Positions 32,401 to 49,300 of a stretch of 64,000 bases of DNA are shown piece after piece. The stretch spans positions 1-64,000 of the forward strand of contig NOWV01000142.1 in the NCBI GenBank assembly GCA_003344405.1, read 5' to 3'. The notes under the pieces were generated by a model. That model worked only from the letters and a program-made list of their open reading frames with translations. It was not told where the DNA came from and searched no databases. This DNA comes from Trichoplax sp. H2 (lineage: Eukaryota). Each line of letters begins with the position of its first letter. The stretch's first letter is position 1. The position numbers and the translations under genes were made by a program.

Positions 32401-35400
32401 CAATTCTTTGTTGTTTGGTGCCATCGTACTAATTATGTCAGCATGATAAAAGTCATTGGATCTAACCTCTTCAATTTCTTAAGTAATCTAAATGCCCTCC
32501 ATGCTCATCTATCTATGACTTTCAATGGTATGAAACCTCCAGAGTTTCAGTGCATGCCTTCAGATGATCCAAAAAAGTTTTACCTCCATTATTATTCGTG
32601 TCGTGAGAATTTATTCGGTATCGTTGTTGGTGCAACTAGAGAAGCTGCTCGCTCCCTCTTTAATCGTCGAATCTCCATTAAAATAATCAGTAAGACAGTT
32701 GACAATAGTCGTTATGCCAATCGCCATCACATCGTCTTCGAAATTTGCGATTTAGGTTACGCCGATATTAAATTGGCACGTACGGAAACAATTGCAATGG
32801 AGCCTGGAGCAGCAATGTTTGTTCACATGAATGGCTACAGCAGTGAGAGTTTTGATTACCAGTCACAAACTGAATACGTCAATTCTAAAGTCTTTTGCCG
32901 TATTTTTCCATTTCATATTATCTTCGATCAAGATTTAATTATTAAACGTGTTGGTGTTGGTCTTTATCGACGCTTACAGGATTTAAATACAGCGGATAAA
33001 CCACGACTGGATCAATTTTTCGAATGTCTTAAACCACCTGTTAAACTATGTAAACGAAGTATTAAAAGCTACAGAAATAACGATTTTATCTTACAATGTA
33101 AAGATAAATCTATTAAAGAAGGCAATTTATTTCAATTAAAAGGTGAAATGGTCGAATTAGAAGAACATGGTTCACATTATATGTTCATCTGCTCACCCGT
33201 AGTTGAGAAGTTAACTGATTTACAAAATCGTGGTCTCTTTATAAGTGATATTCCACTTCATGATATGACTCGTGAATTATTGCTACTAAATGAGCAACGT
33301 TTAGCAGAATTTCAGCTGTCTAAGCAATTAGAGGAGACAACTGCTCAATTGCAAGCAACATCGGTAGCCCTAGAAATGGAAAAAGTTAAAGCAGATAATT
33401 TATTACATAGTATGTTGCCACCATTAGTCAGCGATCGATTACGCAATGGTGATACAGTAGAGGCTGGAGAATATGAACAAGCTAGTATTATGTTTAGTGA
33501 TATCGTAGGCTTTACAACCATTTGCAGCCAGTGTAGACCTATGGATGTGGTTCAGTTTCTGAACAGTTTGTATGTGAAATTTGACAAGCTAACCAATGTT
33601 CATGACGTTTATAAGGTGAGATCTACTGTTGCATACTAAATTATTATTTGATTTATTTTCGCCATCATGTCAAGCGGTCTCCAATCGATTATTTTAGAAC
33701 GAGACGAGTATAATTCAAGTTGAATATAGTGCCAGCTACACTGTACATATGTTATATTCAGATGCGGTGAAAGTACTATAAGAACACAATAAATTGTATC
33801 TTTCCCTAGAATTCTAGTTTTAAAAAATTTGTAATCGAATCATCTTAAGTGAAAACATTCGGTCATAATTAATTGAAGTCTTTTATGTCAACCACTTGAT
33901 CATTTACGATGGATTGATTCTTACCACATTGGTAAATCATTTTTGCTAATACATCTAGTGATATCATTTCGCTAGTAAGATAAAATCATTCACTTTATTA
34001 TCGATAATGATTGTCATAATGAATTTAATTTCATTGATATTAATGAAACACTATTATAACAATCTATCAGGTGTTGTACTTCGAATCATTAACAAGTAGA
34101 GTTTGCCTTATTTTGTTTAGGTAGAGACTATTGGTGATGCATACATGGTAGTAGGAGGTTTACCGGAACCATGTGCTAATCACGCTGAAAAAGTAGCTCG
34201 AATGGCGTTATCTATGGTTGATTGTGCTGTGCAAGTATCATCTCCATCTGATAACAAACCACTTCGAGTAAGTATAAAAAATTCTTTATTTTAAATAATA
34301 ATCATTAGAATTACAGCCACAACTAATACTATAATTTAGATCGTATCTGCTTGACAGTATGGTGATTTTAATACATAAATGTTATCAAATACTGCATATT
34401 TTCAGTAATTGGTGTAGGTGATAGTATTATAGGTATTATTATATATCCTGCTTATGAAGGACTATAAGTAAAAACGTTGATGCTTACATGATTCTATCTT
34501 AAGGCAAAGAACGTTTACAGTTTAAGTAAAAGATCTCATGTTCAGATAAAATTTAGTAACCAATTTGTTACCGGTTAGATATGCGTAGAGATGAAGTAAA
34601 TAAATTATTGGAATAAAAGGGGCGAACAGGAAATTAAAATCTACTTTCCAATATTACAATGACTTTCATGAAATATATCAGTAATAAGCAAGAAAATAGT
34701 ATAATAATTTGGAGAGATGATAGGTACTGTAGAATCTTTCTATATTATTATCACAATAATACTAATAGCATCTTTTATACCAGAATGGGAATTCATTTTA
34801 GCCATTTACGATATTGATTAAGATGGATAGCGAGTTATGCTATTGTTTAAAGTCATTAACAGCCTATCTTAAGCCAATTGATAGGACAATGTAATCGTAT
34901 TTGCATCTGCTGGATAAATCTAATTTCTTATGATACCATTTATTTTCATTAACATGAGTTAAAAGGTAAACGTTACCTTTACTACATTGTCGTAGATTAG
35001 AATTGGAATACATTCTGGGCCGGTAGTTGCAGGTGTTGTTGGAAGCAAAATGCCTCGCTACTGCTTATTTGGTGATACTGTTAATACTGCAAGTCGTATG
35101 GAAAGCCATGGCTTGCCTAGTACTATTCACATCAGCGAAGCCTGTTACAAGTAAGATAATTTAATAAGCTTTTATACCTTCACTCATTGAAATCGAACTA
35201 CATTAGAGTGTTCTATAAGAGCATTCTCGCAGTGTTCTCTATTTAAAATATCAATATTACCAATCCTAAAGAAATGATAAACTTTGACAGATATTTGAAA
35301 GGTAAAGGGTTTCGAATGCAATCGCGAGGCAAGGTGGCAATTAAAGGAAAAGGATTAATGAACACTTACTTTGTTTTACGTGAATGTCAGAGATCGATCA

Positions 35401-35561
35401 ATTTAGAGGATGATCCACTAAGGAAAAAATCGGAAACTGTGCCCCCTCTTTCTACCCTAAATCGGCAACTTGTTGATGATAAATTACCTGTCACTTCTAA
35501 TTGCTTAAATATGGTATCGTGGAAAGCATCTAATGAGCAAAATTCCTGTGTAATACAGTAA
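29443..35561 (+). CDS. Soluble guanylate cyclase, beta-type (H-NOX + PAS/H-NOBA + coiled coil + cyclase), beta2/atypical-like with C-terminal CaaX, 7 exons, ~665 aa
   Basis: Exons: 29443-29445 (ATG|GTAAG), 29812-29885 ([24 protein letters not shown]), 32111-32208, 32366-33615, 34121-34267 ([15 protein letters not shown]), 34996-35150 ([37 protein letters not shown]), 35291-35561. All introns are GT-AG with consistent phases; total 1998 nt. Motifs: NLNALHAHL (haem His), HYYSCR (YxSxR), FSDIVGFT. Confidence 0.92.
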
Positions 35562-36855: not shown

Positions 36856-37664
36856 AGAAATAGACGACAAATACTCATATAGCCTAACATGTTAAATTCG
36901 GAATAGTACGTAGCGCAGAAAGTACTAGGAATAGAAATTCGGCAGATATTTCACGATACAGTCTTGTCATTTTTACTCGATGATTGGGTACAATGCTATC
37001 GACCATTCACATTGTCGCGAGTACCAGAGAACATCAAATTAAATAAAATCTGTACTAAATACCTAAACTTTTTTAACTATCAGATCTTCGAATTCATAGA
37101 CCTGTTAAAAAATTCTAAAAATGTTTGATACTTTGTGATAAACATATAGTTTAAAAACATTTTAGAGAGCTATTTTTATATTGGATATTTTGCGTAAAAT
37201 CGTAATACTGCCTCTTTTAGTTTGCAATTATTTGGATAGAATATAATCTTCAGTATACCAACAGCAATGGATCTTGTCGAATATGTTTATCAGATTACGT
37301 TTGTCAGAAAGTATTTTCAGTCCGAAATTACTCCTATAATCAGATTATAACCTCAGTATCAACAGTCGTCCGTCGTAATAGATAAAAATCGCTATCTGGT
37401 GATACCCTTAAAGCGCATTTAAACATACATCAAATTGTTACGGCAATTGCAGTGTATCTCGTGTCACATCATATCTCACCGTCAGGCATCCTCTAGGGAA
37501 CATTTACGTGAAGGAATCCACAATCGTTACAGATGATAAAGAAAGAAAAATAATCTTTCATTAATACCATAGACGGAGCATGACAATAATTTCATATAAA
37601 AGTACGCATGATATTATACTAATAAGCGTAGATAATAACAAGGTTGCATAGAAGCTAACTAAAG

Positions 37665-40600
37665 TTAACTTGAACCCGTAAAGTGAAATAGTACCTGATA
37701 CAATGGCGTGAACGAAATTTAAATAAAAACACAAATACAATCATTACTTATTAATATTCGATAAATACCTGAATAGGCACGAATGTCGGTGGTACACCAG
37801 AAGGTGTAATAAAATTAGCAGTACCAACCGTAGCCGGGACCGTTGGCATGTGTGTGTGAGGGACTATGGTAAAAGATAATTTTGCTGCTATTAAATTGCT
37901 GTACTAATGACGATATTTTAAGAGTTTAAGATAGCAATTGCTGACAAAAGGTAGATACCTATTGAATGCGTAATCAAATTAATAAACGGCGAAACTAAAT
38001 AATTTACTACTTACTTGGCATTCCTGGTAACTGAGCCATGGGAGTAAAAAATGGCGTAAATACTTGTTGCTGTTGCCAAGCTAAGGTATTTGGACTAACT
38101 GCTCCATTAAAATTATTTACGTTGACTCTTCTTTTAGGATGAAATGATTCATTGACAAAGTTCTGAAATTAGGAAAAACTTGTCAATGGAAACTGCTTTG
38201 TAGCATGGTAATCTTTTATACTTAGATTAGCGTGTCAGTACATCAGTATTATCCGGATAGATGATACTTTTCGTTAGAGGTAGATATTACTACGTAGTTT
38301 ATTATTTATGGTCGAAAAAACTTGCTTTGTTGTATCTACACCATAAATTGATAGATGTACTAATTCTGACTAATGTGAGGGTTGTACTATAACGTACACT
38401 ATATTTCTCTGTAAAGGACCGATTGGCCTCATTTGTATATGATACGAAATAATTACAACTCATTGTTAGATTATACTGATACAATGAATAGTGTACTGAA
38501 TGCTATCATCAGATATTAGCATTATTACTGTTCGATCAATATAATTTATGAACGAAGTATTCGTTAGTCTTTTTGACGAACATGTTCCGAGATTATAACT
38601 AAGTTGCAGACAAAAAACCTTATTGGTAGCCAGTATCGCGGATAAAAATATCACAGGGTAGAGACTGCCACAAAATTTTTTGATTTAGATTAGTTTTATA
38701 CATAATATAAGCAGCGTGTACCGTATCGTTATGCTCCAGCTTGCGTTTTCTGCCGTCAGTCTAATTAGTAACGGTAGCAAGCGTTAGGCAGCAGCAGTGG
38801 CATAGCATAAGAGTAGAAAGTTATTAAAGTGTTATAAAAATGTCTGAAAAACGAAGCTGACAGCAAAGCTTAGTGTGATTCAACTGTCAAGCAATATATC
38901 ACTGATTACATTAAAATAAATGCGTGAATATATTCTTAAATTCTATATCAGCGTATGTACTATGTGCTATTTAATGCGTGCTACCAGTCTAGTCGTCGTT
39001 CATTGTCAGTGATTCAGAGTCAATAAATATCGAAACTTTATTTCCATAATTGTTACTGAAAAGATTTCGTCGTTAATATCGTAAGGAGAAGAAGTGAAAG
39101 ACGGGTTTTTATTATCAATTCTAAATAGTATGATGCCAAGTGTGAAAGTTGCCTGTTTAGGAATACAGTAGTTGTAAAAATTTAAGCTGTGATTCGCGAA
39201 TACAGCGGATATGTACACTTATAGATGGCAGAAGAAATTATTAGATTCTGACAGTACGGTATACGTAAATCTGTATGAAAACGTATACAAAAACAGGTAA
39301 AGCAAGTCTAGTTCAAAATACTTACAAGCAACACGCACTGACCTGATCTGTTATTTGCTGTTGTTGCGGAGGTTGCTGTTCTAGTGTTGATTGCTGTTGT
39401 TGTTGTGGTTGAGGGAGAGGCTGTTGGACCGGCTGAGCTTGCTGTTGCTTTACTCGTGTTAGTAGATGCGGAGGTGGATGAAAGTATCTGCATACATCGC
39501 GTTGGCACTTCCCTTTGATGTGATCCATGCATAATGTGACAGTGTTATCATATTTATCGATAACAACATTAGTAGGAGGATGAGCGTAGCGACATTCATC
39601 TTCACCCCGTGAGCATGTGCCACGTCTGTACTGCCGACAAACCTAATTAATAAATTAATTATTACACTAGTCATGAAATGCATGATTTACGAAAGTAAAG
39701 GGTTTTATTATTCGCTGTATTTGATAATTTGAATTACCTCCATTCGGTCAACTTTAGCAGGCTTCTTAGGCATAGAATTACCGATAGCATTGTTAATCAG
39801 TATCGGTTCTAGTGGAGCACTAGTTACATATTCCGGATATAATGCTGGAACTATGCTAACAAAAGGTGCGCTCTAGAGAATTAGGCAAATATGCGTATAT
39901 TAGGTACAACATACACTGTGCATGCATCGTTTATTTAATATATCTATATCTAGATATTTGAACATATGGCAGAAATCGATTATAGTGTATTCCTTCCTTA
40001 ATATCTTAAATAAATTGTAGAACGAGACCGATGTGATATGTATGTATTCCGTTTGCAAATATTACAACATCTAGTAAATTTGTTGAAAAGCTCTTATATT
40101 CTACTTACTATTGGTTGCCCTACGAATGGTGGTCCAGTTGTAAGTAGCAGCTGTTGCTGCATCTGTCGTTGTTGCTGTTGCTGTTGCTGGTGTTGTTGTT
40201 GCTGTCTTAAGTTTAGTCTGCCGTTGTTTTCTAGTTGAATTTTTAAATGCTTCGGTGGATGAAAGTACTTGCAAACCTCACGATTACATCGATTCTAATT
40301 ATGAATCACAATTAGGCGGTTTCGTTAACTAATACCGGCGTATTACATTTAAGACATGATTACAGATTGAATTTCCTTGTTTGTTTAAATTTATTAGCTA
40401 TCATGTAGGATCCAATGAAACCGGCAGCATTTCCTACAGGTGCTATTCTTAAAGTGGCTATACAATGTACCTCTTTATAACACTACGACATACTGTACAT
40501 TTTATTCTGTTACAGTGAATACATGTACAACGCAGTCAAGCTGATTGCGATAGTTGTTTAAAAGAATAGGCACCAGATGCTCTGATGTTATTGACTCAAA

Positions 40601-43515
40601 ATCACAAGCATCAATATAACACATTATATTATCTCCTTCCATAACCTAACTACGGGCAACTAAAAGAAAATCTACTAGGTTTTCTTCTAATGGTACGTGA
40701 CCTAGCTCAAATAACTACATTATAATGTGCAACAGCATATTATGTCATTAAAAGAGGTAAGTATAATGTAATCCAATGACGGTAAAATAAAACACAAAGG
40801 TACTGACTATGATCATGACTTAAATTATCACGGTAAGTGATGATTAATCCATTCATTTACTTTTAAATAATTGGTATTGGATACAAGCGATGTTGCTCCA
40901 ACTTTGTACAAAGATAATATTGTAAATTATATCAGAATAAAGAGAAATAACAATTGAAAATGTAAATATCACGCGCTATTCGAATTTCCCATCTGCCCAA
41001 TATTAATTATAAGTACTGCATGACATAAGCATATGGTGTCATGTCGTTAGAGAAAATGAATTTCTATATAAAGTAATTGATTTGATTGAATACAGATTCG
41101 ATGGATGCAATTACAGTTATTGAGGAAACAAGGTCTGCGATTGACAAGCAATCTAAAACAAAATGATTTACGTGATGACCATGTTTTAGGAAAAGCTATC
41201 ACCCAACAACCAATCCTTGTAATGTGATTACTGTCGTAGCATAGATAAACAGATTCATTAATTATACAGTCATTGAAAGGTGTTAGATGCAATAACACCA
41301 AAAAATTGCTCTTGCACGATTTACAGTCAGCAATCTTACGCAAGAATGTGCCATACACTTAAGTCTAAACTTTTAAAGTACGAATGTCGCGCATATACCA
41401 TGCAAATACCGTTAAAAGCTATTCGTAGAGAATCTTATTTTGCGATCGTTAAAATGAGACTGCAACTGCTTTGATTCCATCAAGTCACCTACCCCTTGCG
41501 ATAGGTCCTCAAATTAAATGGTTACTATAGTATTTTTTATATGACTACTCATTCAAAACCCACGTTTAAAAGAAAAAGAAATGATTGCTGCAACAAAATT
41601 ATATCTATAGTTCTTTAACAGGGATGATGATGATCCAGTTAATTTTTCATATTCTTGTTCGTTTAATAGCAAGCACCTTGCGTTTACAAATTTTAGCGAT
41701 GCTAACCAGCAATACACGCATACTTTACGTCATAGATGCCAACTTTTTAGTACACAAACCCCAAATTTATAAATGATTTTAGAATCTTAACTATATAAAG
41801 AAGTTAAACAGCAAGAGCGCAAAGAATACAGAGAACGGGATTTTTATTGGGTTCATCTACTGTTCGATAGGGTGCAGTACTGAATCTCTATTTCCGTAGA
41901 CGTAAAGTCGGATAGTCAGACTTTAACATGGGCAGGGGTGATGACCAACCGTTCAGGTTTCAAATTTACTGTACGTATAAAAGTAAGCAGTCATGAGATT
42001 TTGCTGCAAAAGTAAATCTCTATTGCCGAATTATATAATTATCGGAATCCACGTAGCGCAATAGTACGATTAATAGTATGTAAATCAAAGAGTTACTGCC
42101 ATCTATGGCAATGTATCGTAACTGGTTAATAATTCAGTTCCAATATACCTATACGGAATTAATTAATTACCCAGTAGATCTTTAACAATTTTACTAGGCG
42201 ATCTCATTTTGATAGGCCTAAACTCCTTCATAGCACATCTCAAACCGCGATAACAATTATTTACTATTAGCGTGTAACTTAGTGAATTACTAGGATATGC
42301 TACCAGTAAAACTAATAAAACTAAGACTACTTCCATAAAAATAATTGATTAGACCCAAAAATTATTGAATTGGGCGACGGAAGACGAAATTGAACAATCA
42401 CTGTCACCCATTTACAATTAAATAAATAAATATATTATACTTGAATTACAGTTATATTGTATGAATAGGACTGTATAAACCTCAGCAAACAAGTTTAATT
42501 TTGGATGTCGAAAGTTATGCTTTAGTGTACAAGTTCTTTAGCAATTAAAGCAGTTCGCTTGACTATGAATGATCGTAAAATCCTGCAAACTCGGCATTGG
42601 CGAATAAGCAAAAACTTTCGGCCCGTCTTTGTGGAATATTGTTTTACAGTACTGTACTAGTATGAGGATTAGGGGTCGGTACGATACATTTACAAATCCG
42701 CCTAATACAGTATATGCTCAACATACGTCAATCGTTAGCTTTACTCATGTAATTCAAGTCGTAGACACGCTAAATCATGGATGACGACCATCTTGTTATA
42801 AAGAAAAATTATCCATGAACTATATAGTACAGTACTTGGCTATAGTGATAGGCTTTATTATTAGGTATACACGTTGATTCTATTCTTGGATCGCAATATG
42901 TGGTGGTAAAACGGTATCAGAATCGATCAACGATACTGACAGTGTCAATTTTTATAAACGCTAATTCATTATCTCTTGTAAGAACTATTGAAGATTTTGA
43001 TTGAGCAATGTACTGTGCATTATGTTGGGTAGTCAATGCATGATAGAATTATGGCATGAAATGACCAAGGATTACTTTGTGTTTATTTAGTAGCAAAACT
43101 GATCGTAGTAATCTACCAGTGAACTAGATCGATGTGTTTGATCCATAAATGCAGCAAAAGCCCTACAATAACTTTTTAGGTTACGCCTTCACTAAATCGT
43201 AAGCAATCACTATAGCGTCAATGATAGCATCAACGAGGGCATATGAAATTAATGTCAAAAGATGTTGAGTTTTTGACCGACGGTGATGGAAAAATTGATA
43301 TCAACACCAATCAGTAGAATTAAGAGACTTACTTTGATAGAATCGTAACAGGCAGTTACGAAGCCATTGTCGATTTGAATATTGTTACCAGGATGTGCGT
43401 ACCTGCATTCACCTTCATCTCGTGCACATTTGCTACGTAAAAATTCTCGACAAACTTCCACTTGTAGCCAGCTTGTATCTTTGCCAGTTGTAATATTGGG
43501 ATGAGTCATTTGCAT
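37665..43515 (-). CDS. mbl: Muscleblind/MBNL-family CCCH zinc-finger splicing regulator with four fingers (two tandem pairs)
   Basis: Exons: 43515-43333 ([27 protein letters not shown]...ACYDSIK), 40294-40109 ([14 protein letters not shown] + polyQ), 39872-39738 (...DRME), 39642-39343 ([23 protein letters not shown]...[20 protein letters not shown]), 38760-38722, 38162-38015, 37863-37769. Fingers have the C-x7-C-x6-C-x3-H / C-x7-C-x4-C-x3-H spacing typical of MBNL. The final exon is uncertain: read-through to a stop at 37751, or a spliced exon 37694-37665. Confidence 0.9.
38722..38760 (-). CDS. mbl: 39-nt phase 0-0 muscleblind exon encoding [13 protein letters not shown] (first half of a putative bipartite NLS); likely cassette exon
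   Basis: Acceptor TAATTAG| at 38761, donor ACG|GTACAC at 38721; in frame with both neighbouring exons; KRKLE resembles KRPLE of vertebrate MBNL1 exon 5. Confidence 0.75.
38776..38807 (-). promoter_or_regulatory. YGCY cluster (putative MBNL-binding intronic splicing element) overlapping a candidate branch point of the 39-nt exon
   Basis: Minus strand reads ATGCTATGCCACTGCTGCTGCCTAACGCTTGCTA: 7 YGCY in 32 nt, with a CTAAC branch-point consensus inside. Confidence 0.65.
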
Positions 43516-44694
43516 GATTGTTGTTCAAAATGGATCAACACTATCAACATGCAGAGGATAATGAATCTTAATAGTAAGAGAGAGCAGCGATGATTGTATT
43601 TACCGAATCAAGCTTATGCGTACGTAGTTGCTAGAGTGGTCGACAAGAGCGTTGAAATGGAAAAGAATAATCAAAAAATGTTATTCACCTTAAGGTTAAG
43701 AATCAATGTTGGGAATCGGCGATAATACAGTAGAAGGGGGAAAAAAAGAAAGGGGGAGCAAATCAGCAATAGCGTCTGTTACAGCGCAATTTTTGAAGAA
43801 AAGGGAATAGAATATTGAAAATTGTAATTTAGCTGGGTTGTATATCGCTTGACTACAACATCAAGTCAATGGAAGCTGTATTGGATCTTTCAATATATTA
43901 ATAGTATATTGTCCAAATGAGAAGACAATAACCAAATTGAAATTAGTTTAATTGAATATTGCTTCGTTGCGGGAGGGGTGCAAATTGGAATACGGTTAAA
44001 TAATCCTGGTCATACAACAATAGTATCAAGAGGGTAAAAGGACCAGCTGGCTTACAAGATATCCTTGCCGTATTGACGAAAAGGATGCAATACCAAATTG
44101 CCCAAAAAAGCAATGTCTACAATAAGCAATGACCTTAATTAAACAAGCAAAAGAAGCACAATTTGATACTATAGCATCGCAGTTGAATTTCAAAGTAAGG
44201 ACTAGCCAGTGTGCTTGGCAAAGCAACAAGTCGTTCAATTCACCAACAAACAGTATAGTCCAAAGTCAAAAGAAAGAAAAAAAATGCACTTTGCTTGAGT
44301 GAAAATGGTCAAAGTAAAATCAACCGCCAAGTACAAATAGTGTACTACAATCTGTCAACAAAGTAAAAATAAATCAAGTCAAATGGATAATTTCCAAGGA
44401 CTAAAGTCAAGTGGACCATTCGTCAAAGAAAAATGAGTGAAAAAATGCCAATTAAAAATGTTGCTCTTTTCGTCTTTGGCGATATTCCCTTTTCTTAGCA
44501 ATGCGGCGAAAAGCAGCAGCAGCGGAATTGGGACAGTGATAGTGTGAACGCGTGCGTGTGCAGCCTACATAAGGTATTGTAACGATTAGACGGCAGACGG
44601 CCAATACCGTAATTTAAGTAGATTTTCACCTGGCCAACATGACCGTGACTACATGGGTACAGTACCGACGGCACACGTACAACACTACAACGGT

Positions 44695-46347
44695 GTGTTG
44701 CAGTGACGTCAAGTTAGCATACTGTCGTACAATGGCGTTGGTGGTCCAATCATCCGCTAGCCCATCCGACGTCGACTCGATCCAGTCTCAGGTCGACTGA
44801 CAGGTAGAGACGGACGTTTCTCATGTTGTCACAGATCGATAGCACACACAGCCCCACCCTCACAGTCGGTTAATCTAGACATGGCAGAGCAAAGCTAGCT
44901 GCTACGCTTTCCTCTCCTAGTACTGAGCTTTTCACGTTCTGGTCTAGTTCGTTATTTATTGATGATTATGCGGGATAGAAAACATTTTAGTATTCAGGAT
45001 TCTCCATCTGATTTTCGCGCTTACTGGTCTAGTTAGTTATTTATTGATGATTATGCGGGATAGAAAATATTTTAGTATTCATAATTCTCCATCGTCGTTG
45101 CTACCATGCAATCACATCTTGCTCTTGTACCTCGAGAGACAAAGCTTAGCGGCTGCTAGCTGCTACGCTTTCCTCTCCTCATAAGTAACCGCTTCTAGTA
45201 CTGAGCTTTTCGCATACTCCTCTNNNNNNNNNNNNNNNNNNNNGTGTTGCAGTGACGTCAAGTTAGCATACTGTCGTCCAAGGGCGTTGGTGGTCCAATC
45301 ATCCGCTAGCCCATCCGACGTCGACTCGATCCAGTCTCAGGTCGACTGACAGGTAGAGACGGACGTTTCTCATGGTGTCACAGATCGATAGCACACTCAG
45401 TCCCACCCTCACGGTCGGTTAATCAAGACATGGCAGAGCAAAGCGTAGCAGGTTAGCGGCAGCTAGCTGCTACGCTTTCCTCTGCTAGTACTGAGCTTTT
45501 CGCATACTCCTCTGGTTATTTATTGATTGATGATTATGCGGGATAGAAAACATTTTAGTATTCATAATTCTCCATCGTCGTTGCTACCATGCAATCACAT
45601 CTTGCTCTTGTACCTCGAGAGACAAAGCCTAGCGGCTGCTACCTTCTACGCTAGTACTGAGCTTTTCGCATACTCCTCTGGTTATTTATTGATTGATGAT
45701 TATGCGGGATAGAAAACATTTTAGTATTCATAATTCTCCATCGTCGTTGCTACCATGCAATCACATCTTGCTCTTGTACCTCGAGAGACAAAGCCTAGCG
45801 GCTGCTAGCTGCTACGCTTTCCTCTCCTAGTACTGAGCTTTTCGCGTTCTGGTCTAGTTAGTTATTTATTGATGATTCTGCGAGATAGAAAACATTTTAG
45901 TATTCATAATTCTCCATCGTCGTTGCTACCATGCAATCAAATCTTGCTCTTGTACCTCGAGAGACAAAGCTTAGCGGCTGCTAGCTGCTACGCTTTCCTC
46001 TCCTCATAAGTAACCGCTTCTAGTACTGAGCTTTTCGCATACTCCTCTGGTTGTTTATTTATTGATGATTATGCAGGATAGAAAACATTTTAGTATTCAT
46101 AATTCTCCATCATCGTTGCTACCATGCAATCACATCTTGCTATTGTACCTCGAGAGACAAAGCCTAGCGGCTGCTAGCTGCTACGCTTTCCTCTCCTCAT
46201 AAGTAACCGCTGCTAGTACTGAGCTTTTCGCATACTCCTCTGGTTAGTTATTTATTGATGATTCTGCGGGATAGAAAACATTCTAGTATTCATAATTCTC
46301 CATCATCGTTGCTACCATGCAATCACATCTTGCTCTTGTACTTCGAG
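44695..46347. repeat. Near-identical tandem array (~165-195 bp unit, ~7 copies) plus a ~250-bp block duplicated across an assembly gap
   Basis: Unit TTATTTATTGATGATTATGCGGGATAGAAAACATTTTAGTATTCATAATTCTCCATCGTCGTTGCTACC...GAGCTTTTCGCATACTCCTCTGG starts near 44952, 45037, 45516, 45682, 45862, 46051 and 46247. Block GTGTTGCAGTGACGTCAAG... occurs at 44695 and 45244. Confidence 0.9.
45224..45243. other. Assembly gap (20 N)
   Basis: Run of N characters. Confidence 1.
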
Positions 46348-49300
46348 ATACGAGTAGATTTAGATTGCTCGAGGGTGCAGAGATATCCAACTCTATCATC
46401 GACTAGGAAAGACTGCCATCCTACGTCGAATCTACTGTATAAATGCAATCATAGACTCAAAATATCCCAAAGATAACAAACATTCCCCGACTAGGATGAA
46501 ATCAGGCATCATAAAATACTGCCCCTAAAATCACTTTCATCATAATTTGACATCCATTTTATCATTTCTCATCCATACTCGCATCAATTATATTTCATAA
46601 TTGTCAAATCATGAATAAGAAAGGCCATAATGGTGTTGGTATTTTCTCCTCATCGTAGCCAGCGCATCCATCCAAATGTATCCAAGCGTAGCCACATTGA
46701 ATGCTTATCCATGGATTATAATTAATTAATTTACCATGAAAATTGAAATAGTTAAAATGGAATATCAAGAAGGTATTATTGCATGGATGGAAGTTCACTG
46801 AAATATCACGTATATGACTCAAGATGGAACACAACAACCATCTCTATAAATACGCCTATTCAGAAGTTGACAGTAAAGCTTGCATGCCAACTTATGCATC
46901 ATTTGAATCATTTTATCACATGTTCATAGGAATAATTAAGTAATATATAAATAATAATCAATTGGCCAAATCTATATTATACCATCGTACATCATGTTTG
47001 CACAGCAATCAAAATAAAGGAATCTAGCAACGAATCAATATTTTTCATAATCGGTATGATAAATCCTTTTCAATTTTCTTGGATCGAGTACAATATGGTC
47101 TCAGCAGTTCTCAATTTTCCTCCTATGGACAATTGGTGATAATTTACTGTTCGTTCTAGTAAAGACAATCATAAAGTTTGCAACATACACATTTCCGGTA
47201 GAAATTGCCAAACTATGTGAACTACATATCAAATTTTCCGCTTCTAAATTACTTTTATACCTTGTACCGTTGCATAGAAATGTACAATGTACTGATCATA
47301 GTACTTTGTACTTTGCACTTAACCACTTTTTACTCTTTCACTTGGCTATATTTTTAGAGTGATCATCAACGATCGTTATTCCAGTCATAAAATGACCATT
47401 CTAATAGTCTCTGATACAGGAAGAGTGGCTATCAAATTTCTCGAATTAATGATTAATACTGTATAATGCTAACAGATTAATGAATCAATCGTTATGATCC
47501 AATATTTGCACACAATAATATAGCCCAGTTGGCAAGGCGATCAGAAAAGCTAAATAGTCACGTACACGTTGTAGCCCTGTTGTACAGTTACAGTAAAGGT
47601 ACATTAATTTGTATAGGTATATTACATTGTACGTAGAGCAACATACGTTATTTAAATACGAACAGACAGTATTAGGAAGTAAAGTTTATTGTTCGCCTAA
47701 TATCCTATAATATATTTTAATCAATGCATTCATTTTAGATGCTTGAATTATTTACAGCTTATACTAACTCAGTGCCATATTAAAGTACAAGATGTACGTA
47801 GTACCCTTCAGGGCACTCTAGTAATCGCTTCCTAAATAGACTCCATTCAGGAATATTAAAGTGGTGTAATCGTTTCCTTAGTAGACTCCATTTAGGCACA
47901 CTAAACTGACATGATCACTTATAATACTTTGTGTATTCCGAGTACCCCGCTGATTAGAGATAAAAATCATCTATGCTTTGATACCAATTGTATATCTCCA
48001 CTAAAAGTCAAAAATTCAAACTGCGACGCAGCATGCCATAAAAGAACGATTACATCATGCGGTGCAAGTGCAACTAGGATATCCATTAGAGTAATGTAAG
48101 ACATTTTCGTACGTAGGCATAGCGCTAAGTATCAGCATCTAGCTGTATCGTAGGCAGCCCAAGAATCCATTTTCTCCACTATCACTATTTTTTGCCTCCG
48201 AAAATCAGTATGCAGTTTCAGTTATTGCACACTACGAGTATCACAGCCTTACCTGCTGATTATCTGGCCGAAGCACTCAATAAGAAAATTGTAACTCGAA
48301 CCTCAAATATTATGCCACCGATTACTATATTTAAGCTACTAATGATAATCCTGATATCAGATCAACTATAATCTTGTTACTCGTTGCACATATGGGTATT
48401 ATCGTTTAAATAATCATATCAAAATAGTATCCAACCAAGCAGAATAGGCAACTTGCAGACTGGATCTATATGAATCGTGCGGTGAACCAATAAGCAGACA
48501 AAATCAGACGACAACTCTTGTTGCGAGGGGGCTGGAAAAGACGGAAGGGAGTAGTATTTGAGTAGATATTCAGACAAATCAAGAATACTAATAATATTAG
48601 TCGTACTTTTCACTGTTTACCACCGTTATATAAGGAATACTATGACAGTACAATATTTACATTAAGATAAAATGATCACCTTTAGCGCGTAACTATAAAC
48701 TCCAATCTAAATTTCTTGTTATCGAGATTGATCAAAGTTTTTCTCAATTTTAAATTACTAAATTCCAAAATAGATTTATAATGTTACGACCTCCTTCTTC
48801 TCATATAACAGCATGTAATGGTAATATATTTACAATATTGTTTATAGTGGCTATACTATTCACGTTTAACTGATACGACAAATCACCAATTCATTCATCG
48901 ATTGCAACAAATACTATAGCCGATATCAAATTGACAAATTTCATTTCATTTGAGACTTATCAAGACAGAAAGTGGTAGTTGCCAATATCTGAAACTTAAA
49001 ATCTAAAATCTTATCACACACTTTAAATTAAGATATCACATGATCCTAATTAATATTACACAGTAATCCATCAATTAAACTAATTTTGAAAACTATTGTA
49101 TTGAAATAGTTGTCTTAGCTTTAGATTGTGAACTACTGTGTTAAGTAATCAATATAAATTCCGTAGCAATCTATTACCAAGTGATTCTAAATGAAGGATT
49201 GTCCTGGAGCATATCATCATCATCTATTCTTTTCGATTAATGCACTTAATCATTCCAAAAGAAAGATACGGTCACGTTTGTATTGAAATAATTCAAAAGT

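Follow-up and report, generated by a model that had tools for sequence, protein, structure and literature searches.

The closest described relatives of the system reported here are muscleblind genes that control the splicing of one of their own exons. According to the text of PMC7901844, vertebrate MBNL1 represses its own 54-nucleotide (nt) exon 5 through YGCY motifs that have a distal branch point on one side and a weak AAG acceptor on the other, and this exon supplies part of a multipartite nuclear localization signal; MBNL2 exon 6 is described as behaving like MBNL1 exon 5 (PMC9943662). Verbeeren, Teixeira and Garcia (2023) demonstrated the same loop functionally for C. elegans mbl-1 exon 7, an alternative exon whose inclusion yields nuclear protein, whose inclusion MBL-1 represses and which FOX-1 co-regulates, and they reported from phylogeny that a double KR motif on adjacent exons, the first of them alternatively spliced, is present in nearly all bilaterian phyla (PMC10773944). 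Here we describe a candidate cassette exon of this kind in the muscleblind gene of Trichoplax sp. H2, located in a 64 kb stretch of DNA that was analysed as a whole (hereafter, the window; approximately 66% A+T, GC 0.34). This 39-nt stretch on the minus strand is, judging from its position, motifs and reading frame, very probably the placozoan ortholog of the KR-motif cassette exons MBNL1 exon 5, MBNL2 exon 6 and mbl-1 exon 7.

The Trichoplax muscleblind protein (TaMBL) has already been shown to repress a human MBNL1 exon 5 minigene (Oddo 2016, PMC5041496), and the authors of that study state that the native function of the protein is unknown. The available main text of PMC10773944 frames the motif pair as bilaterian and contains no mention of Cnidaria, Placozoa, Trichoplax, Porifera or ctenophores, while its S3 figure ('the animal kingdom') may show non-bilaterians; Trichoplax and the coral-like loci described below lie outside Bilateria. 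In the literature, we found no account of the candidate exon in Trichoplax, nor of the circuit outside Bilateria.

The published descriptions of MBNL1 exon 5 and MBNL2 exon 6 resemble the Trichoplax locus as follows: a short, frame-preserving exon stands right after the exon for zinc fingers 3 and 4, it carries the first KR motif with the second part of a two-part signal in the next exon, and YGCY motifs lie in the upstream intron beside weak splicing signals. The vertebrate exons are repressed by the product of their own gene, as is proposed here for the Trichoplax exon. The latter is smaller than MBNL1 exon 5 (39 nt and 13 residues versus 54 nt and 18), and its YGCY motifs are packed within 32 nt, 16–47 nt from the exon, whereas at the vertebrate exon they spread across some 90 nt, below a branch point located at −141. 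Its acceptor has TACTAAT abutting the AG, in contrast to the vertebrate AAG with its far-distal branch point. C. elegans mbl-1 exon 7 likewise places a KR-motif exon next to a second-KR exon, but encodes 75 residues. A further comparison is offered by cardiac troponin T exon 5, where MBNL1, bound at YGCY close to the branch point and 3′ splice region, is in competition with U2AF65 and causes skipping (PMC7901844). That exon belongs to another target gene, without a feedback loop, and involves a stem-loop, whereas the RNA fold around the Trichoplax exon is no stronger than that of shuffled sequences (z 0.32; 123 of 200 shuffles fold as well).

By its protein and domain matches, the host gene is a placozoan muscleblind (MBNL) ortholog with two tandem CCCH zinc-finger pairs. 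Pfam zf-CCCH_10 is matched in three exons of a minus-strand gene at 37.4–43.5 kb. The exon at 39642–39343 aligns with solved structures of MBNL1 zinc fingers 3 and 4 in the PDB (E 1.4e-28) and with zf-CCCH_10 (1e-26), and shows 100% identity with both 'Muscleblind-like protein 3 [Trichoplax sp. H2]' and a partial model from T. adhaerens. RNA contigs of one run, X13, provided the exon map of the gene (Table 1).

The candidate exon lies in the 1180-nt intron that begins where the exon for zinc fingers 3 and 4 (hereafter, the TZF2 exon) ends in ...CAG at 39343, followed by GTCAGT in the minus-strand reading, and that runs to the second-KR exon at 38162. It is preceded by ...ACTAATTAG, followed by GTACAC, and stands in phase 0, directly after the first of these exons, directly before the second and in the same phase as both. 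Its 13 residues include the motif GRKRKLE; inclusion of the exon creates RKRK, a 15-residue linker and KRR, and extends the protein from 356 to 369 amino acids with the frame kept. A preliminary description of this DNA had placed here, in a muscleblind gene, a frame-preserving 39-nt exon with a weak donor, seven YGCY motifs around a CTAAC and two more after the donor, with RKRK-x15-KRR as the outcome of inclusion. Position and phase, translation, a recount of the motifs and the matches of the host gene bear out these sequence features, as does the comparison of donors given below. The same description had noted that a polypyrimidine tract is missing. The tract is indeed absent, but this is not special, being equally true of 7 of the 7 RNA-confirmed acceptors of the gene, which are AT-rich (for example, ..AATTAG, ..CTCTAG and ..TTTCAG); weak 3′ splice regions are the norm in this gene. 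It had also taken the CTAAC for the branch point; the motif is there, but the TACTAAT abutting the acceptor AG within TTACTAATTAG is an equally good candidate on sequence grounds, because the gene's confirmed acceptors lack polypyrimidine tracts and often have CTAAT a few bases 5′.

The open frame of the 39-nt stretch is by itself no evidence, because the intron holds 23 stop-free, frame-preserving AG..GT candidates of 15–200 nt. Its combination of signals is rarer: both strands of the window together hold six copies of ACTAAT(T)AG, and the composite of ACTAAT(T)AG, a stop-free open reading frame (ORF) of 3n length and GTAC has a single match in 128 kb of strand sequence, which is the candidate exon. 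YGCY is the binding motif of MBNL. Seven copies in 32 nt form the densest such cluster on either strand of the window, with no other 32-nt segment holding at least seven; segments with six are found twice more on the minus strand and never on the plus strand, both of them in the GC-rich region at 44.5–45.5 kb, beside the tandem repeats described below. None of 2000 dinucleotide shuffles of the intron reached seven (maximum 4), nor did any of 200 shuffles of the whole window over both strands (maximum 6). In the 60 nt upstream of the acceptor, the candidate has seven YGCY, compared with 0–2 at the gene's seven RNA-confirmed acceptors. That these sequence features exist is confirmed, and they go far beyond what chance would produce.

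The same architecture recurs in other animals. An earlier scan of metagenome contigs with a single exon as query had found no relative, and a profile-guided scan retrieved 80 loci encoding the MBNL zinc finger 3/4 exon. In 12 of these, the first KR motif sits on its own short exon downstream of the TZF2 exon. Named by protein similarity, the 12 fall into six lineage groups: a coral-like group (L007, L016 and L017, with a TZF2 exon 92–94% identical to that of Oculina), a bivalve-like group (L006), two separate spiralian-like groups (L001; L037), an arthropod-like group (L060, L063, L067, L069 and L070) and a separate arthropod-like locus (L077). The KR exons measure 45, 66, 105, 72, 78 and 111 nt over the six groups, all divisible by three; their boundaries match annotated mRNAs of related species in three groups and were otherwise inferred from an AG at the start of the ORF and the first suitable GT. 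The TZF2 exon of coral-like L007 and L017 is followed after 1.7 kb by the KR exon and after about a further 2 kb by the second-KR exon. In L007, L017 and L077, the second-KR exon lies 0.9–2.1 kb beyond the KR exon, reproducing the three-exon layout of Trichoplax, and comparison of protein P0070 with L007 puts the KR exon in phase 0 on both sides.

The shared features extend to the putative splicing signals. YGCY-rich sequence precedes the KR exon in five of the six groups: the 100 nt upstream contain 8 YGCY in the coral-like group (a count reached by 0.3–0.6% of locus windows), 10 in L001 and L037 (0.2–0.3%), 5 in L006 (0.8%) and 5 in the arthropod-like group (1.7–3.7%), compared with 7 in Trichoplax (0.2%). 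A GTAC donor is found at the KR exon in five of the six groups as well as in Trichoplax, L006 having GTAT, and YGCT occurs within +6 to +22 of the donor in all five GTAC groups. The ACTAAT(T)AG acceptor is present in four of the six (L001, L037, the L060 group and L077) and in Trichoplax. Vertebrate-like loci (L003, L018 and L032) either gave no match or did not extend far enough downstream, which places the vertebrate exon outside this comparison. Two weak profile matches, in L005 (E 0.35) and L057 (E 0.2), were not accepted as KR exons.

Two further elements were seen in the introns of these loci. In four bilaterian groups, a near-identical YGCTTTGCATGT stands 9–18 nt past the GTAC donor and holds TGCATG, an RBFOX-type GCATG; this element is absent from Trichoplax and from the coral-like loci. 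Three spiralian-like loci share a long, YGCY-packed ATGCCTTGCTGCTTGCTGTTGTCATGTGCCGCC-like element about 100–170 nt upstream of the KR exon, whose conservation suggests an ultraconserved intronic regulator.

At the protein level, zinc finger 4 is followed in the MBNL of many animals by a basic motif, x[GS][KR]KR[PK].., and by a second KR motif 12–20 residues on. The Oculina protein (P0007) reads LEGSRKRPHDTLPEL, then FKKQ, and that of the ctenophore Mnemiopsis (P0021) reads SRKRKLMDTM, then MVKRQ. Two Mnemiopsis read-through fragments (P0050 and P0051) lose sense right after ...LMDTM, and an exon end therefore falls between the two ctenophore KR motifs, as in Trichoplax. Proteins that lack the first motif and bear the second also exist, among them cnidarian-like P0071 and ctenophore-like P0018/L056 (compare P0020), bivalve, tick and brachiopod proteins, and the cDNA-like contigs L004, L020 and L075. 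Among the isoforms examined, no same-species pair with and without the KR exon was obtained: every one in the Mnemiopsis, Mercenaria, Owenia and Oculina clusters at 90% has the motif, and the Lingula isoforms P0017, P0066 and P0019 all lack it. With a KR profile built from 26 distinct non-placozoan MBNL sequences, the candidate exon ranks second of the 4926 six-frame ORFs of the window.

We propose that MBL protein would bind the YGCY cluster, on or just 5′ of the branch site, together with the two YGCY after the donor, and would thereby hinder recognition of an already weak exon, which would be skipped when MBL is abundant. At low MBL the exon would be included and would add RKRK 15 residues ahead of KRR, the two parts completing a nuclear localization signal of bipartite form, which would direct the protein into the nucleus. 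In animals sampled in bulk, such a loop may rest in the skipped state, which would explain why only the skip junction was seen. That the exon is used in Trichoplax, is repressed by MBL and is decisive for localization is what we infer with a probability of about 0.55.

Several observations weigh against this mechanism or against the ancestry of the exon. RNA contigs were available from four runs (X6, X12, X13 and X15), and only X13 spans the candidate intron; X12 has unspliced pieces only, and X15 and X6 have no coverage of 38–39.3 kb, so they are uninformative on absence. In one X13 contig (1045 nt, depth 24.8), 39343 is spliced straight to 38162, a second (605 nt, depth 5.6) covers 38329–38933 unspliced, and neither 38760 nor 38722 takes part in a junction in this single informative run of the four, in contigs of a kind that drop rare variants. 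The preliminary description had called for the junctions 39343>38760>38162 and 39343>38162 to be compared, and of these the skip was seen and the inclusion was not. Skipping exists and predominates in the X13 sample; because contigs drop rare variants, the skip junction does not mean that inclusion never occurs, and it may still do so. The exon is likewise left out of P0001, the gene model of Trichoplax sp. H2. Among 5.8 billion protein clusters, the downstream exon was found only in P0001 and in one intron read-through fragment, no protein of at least 82 amino acids in the collection shares three 5-mers with the exon's ORF, and no other placozoan species appeared among the protein matches. 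The donor is weaker than all seven confirmed donors of the gene. The KR-profile score is only 7.8 bits (E 0.84), and the KR motif alone is therefore weak evidence. The linker of a classical bipartite signal is 10–12 residues, shorter than the 15 found here. Among the other lineages, L077 has three YGCY in the 100 nt upstream of its KR exon, a count reached by 15% of locus windows and thus no enrichment. BLASTN of the Trichoplax region against the 80 loci gave only 11–13-nt matches attributable to chance, and the orthologous exons had none. The 35 annelid-like loci (up to 7 kb downstream), the L058 group (up to 6.4 kb) and L032 (3.4 kb) yielded no KR exon; these negatives are uninformative rather than contrary, because the second-KR exon was likewise not found in their flanks.

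The skip junction, the skip model and the very weak donor, which count against a working exon, are what would be expected if the stretch were a relic, descended from an ancestral KR cassette exon and no longer spliced in, with nuclear entry depending on other signals. In HeLa cells a Trichoplax construct was indeed reported in both nucleus and cytoplasm (PMC5041496), a result that must be read with the construct's description there as 'hypothetical protein in Trichoplax', since it may be the partial model P0002, which is without the candidate-exon region. We consider a relic unlikely. Its open frame, AG, GT, KR motif and GC-rich YGCY cluster are all intact within a 1180-nt intron of an A+T-rich window, and such short elements should have been erased by neutral decay since a loss. 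Furthermore, the same weak GTAC donor is kept in five of the six other lineage groups, which makes donor weakness a property of the working exon.

A different possibility is that the exon is a real alternative exon under control other than its own product's, for instance by a STAR-family or SF1-type protein at ACUAAU, with the YGCY cluster serving another purpose or another YGCY/CUG binder. Conservation of the ACTAAT(T)AG acceptor equals that of the YGCY richness, the TGCATG conserved after the donor in four bilaterian groups points to co-regulators, and FOX-1 is such a co-regulator in C. elegans (PMC10773944). Nevertheless, repression by MBNL through upstream YGCY has been demonstrated for the vertebrate and C. 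elegans exons in the studies cited above, TaMBL represses the human exon (PMC5041496), and YGCY enrichment recurs in five of the six other lineage groups, so that exclusive control by other factors appears quite unlikely. Least credible is the view that an accidental short ORF with a basic patch happens to lie beside an accidental CTG-rich patch. The 23 frame-preserving candidates in the intron, the KR-profile E of 0.84 and the lack of RNA support for the exon would fit such an accident. It would nonetheless have to bring together five features, including the unique YGCY maximum, a KR motif in the place and phase that would be expected, the sole match to ACTAAT(T)AG, 3n ORF and GTAC, and a second KR motif carried by the exon that follows, and to do so where six other lineage groups show the same architecture; we regard it as highly improbable.

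Self-repression by MBL, our preferred reading, concerns a kind of circuit already known from vertebrates, C. elegans and bilaterians, and its presence in placozoan and coral-like loci would be a pre-bilaterian extension. The preliminary description had inferred an ancient cassette-exon circuit. Position, phase, KR motif, weak donor and YGCY richness are common to other animals, including the coral-like loci, but inclusion was not seen in RNA. Likewise, its proposed comparison with other placozoans and cnidarians yielded the same exon layout in the coral-like loci but no alignable nucleotide similarity, and the likeness is therefore one of motif architecture, not of sequence. Whether the muscleblind nuclear/cytoplasmic switch predates the split of Placozoa, Cnidaria and Bilateria, with the protein motif reaching back to ctenophores and with its cis code included (the upstream YGCY cluster, a GTAC donor kept deliberately weak and a branch-like site that adjoins the acceptor), is in our estimate an evenly balanced question. 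If it does, this would rank among the oldest alternative-splicing circuits known to be conserved, working in an animal without muscle or neurons. In developmental splicing programmes and in myotonic dystrophy, the autoregulation of MBNL through its localization exon plays a central part, and its published origin is at the base of Bilateria; a working placozoan copy, together with the coral-like loci, would move that origin to before the cnidarian–placozoan–bilaterian ancestor and would separate the circuit from muscle and nerve development. A real Trichoplax exon would also offer a minimal natural version in which to dissect the MBNL block of a 3′ splice site (39-nt exon, 32-nt cluster and 1.2-kb intron). 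The cross-phylum GTAC donor and ACTAAT(T)AG acceptor, which go unmentioned in the available portions of the MBNL papers cited here, are concrete and testable elements.

Table 1. Coordinates of the Trichoplax muscleblind gene, of the candidate exon and its signals, and of intronic elements in loci of other lineages
Feature	Position	Strand	Evidence
First coding exon, zinc finger 1, ATG at 43515	43333..43515	-	X13 contigs, Pfam
Exon for zinc finger 2 and poly-Q stretch	40109..40294	-	X13 contigs, Pfam
Linker exon	39738..39872	-	X13 contigs
Exon for zinc fingers 3 and 4 (TZF2), flanking the candidate upstream	39343..39642	-	PDB, Pfam, X13 junctions
Cluster of seven YGCY (MBNL binding motif), 16-47 nt 5′ of the exon, flanking CTAAC	38776..38807	-	Motif count, shuffles
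CTAAC branch-point candidate, branch A 24 nt 5′ of the exon's first base	38783..38787	-	Motif match only
TTACTAATTAG: branch-point-like TACTAAT (38770-38764) abutting acceptor AG (38762-38761)	38761..38771	-	Motif match
Candidate cassette exon, 39 nt, first KR motif	38722..38760	-	Sequence, splice-site pattern, KR profile
Weak donor GTACAC	38716..38721	-	C at +4 in 0 of 7 confirmed donors of the gene
Two overlapping YGCY (CGCT, TGCT), +6 to +12 of the downstream intron	38710..38716	-	Motif count
Downstream flanking exon with second KR motif, KRR at 38135-38127	38015..38162	-	X13 junction, P0001
95-nt exon	37769..37863	-	X13 contigs
Last coding exon, stop at about 37471-37469	37429..37492	-	X13 contigs
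Further piece of the 3′ untranslated region	36874-37333	-	X13 contigs
YGCTTTGCATGT element	L001:13738-13800, L037:9038-9100, L060:7499-7560, L077:3291-3350		
ATGCCTTGCTGCTTGCTGTTGTCATGTGCCGCC-like element	L001:13520-13560, L006:11160-11200, L037:8850-8890		

Other observations concern the remainder of the muscleblind gene. Gene model P0001 is without the zinc-finger-2/poly-Q exon, which an X13 contig and the T. adhaerens model both have; the omission is due to an error of the model or else marks a one-finger isoform. The CAG/poly-Q stretch at 40164–40205 (minus strand) draws fragments of numerous unrelated contigs of high depth, with loose ends seen in three runs, and read depth there is therefore no measure of the muscleblind gene. 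The 95-nt exon equals in length the 95-bp exon described for vertebrate MBNL1–3 (PMC9943662) and may be a conserved frame-shifting exon. X13 also shows a 95-nt intron in the 3′ untranslated region, at 37334–37428 (minus strand), about 40 nt past the stop, and run X15 alone shows a 63-nt intron at 43541–43603 (minus strand), either just 5′ of the ATG or inside an extended first-exon ORF.

Upstream of the gene, a tandem array at 45484–46348 (plus strand) comprises 3–4 copies of 166–193-nt units that are about 90% alike and sits in a GC-richer stretch beside an assembly gap (N run 45224–45243); the only other YGCY-dense segments of the window lie in this stretch. On the other side, ORFs at 34121–35560 (plus strand), judged by eye from the ORF list, contain guanylate/adenylate-cyclase-like catalytic motifs, which indicate a neighbouring cyclase gene.

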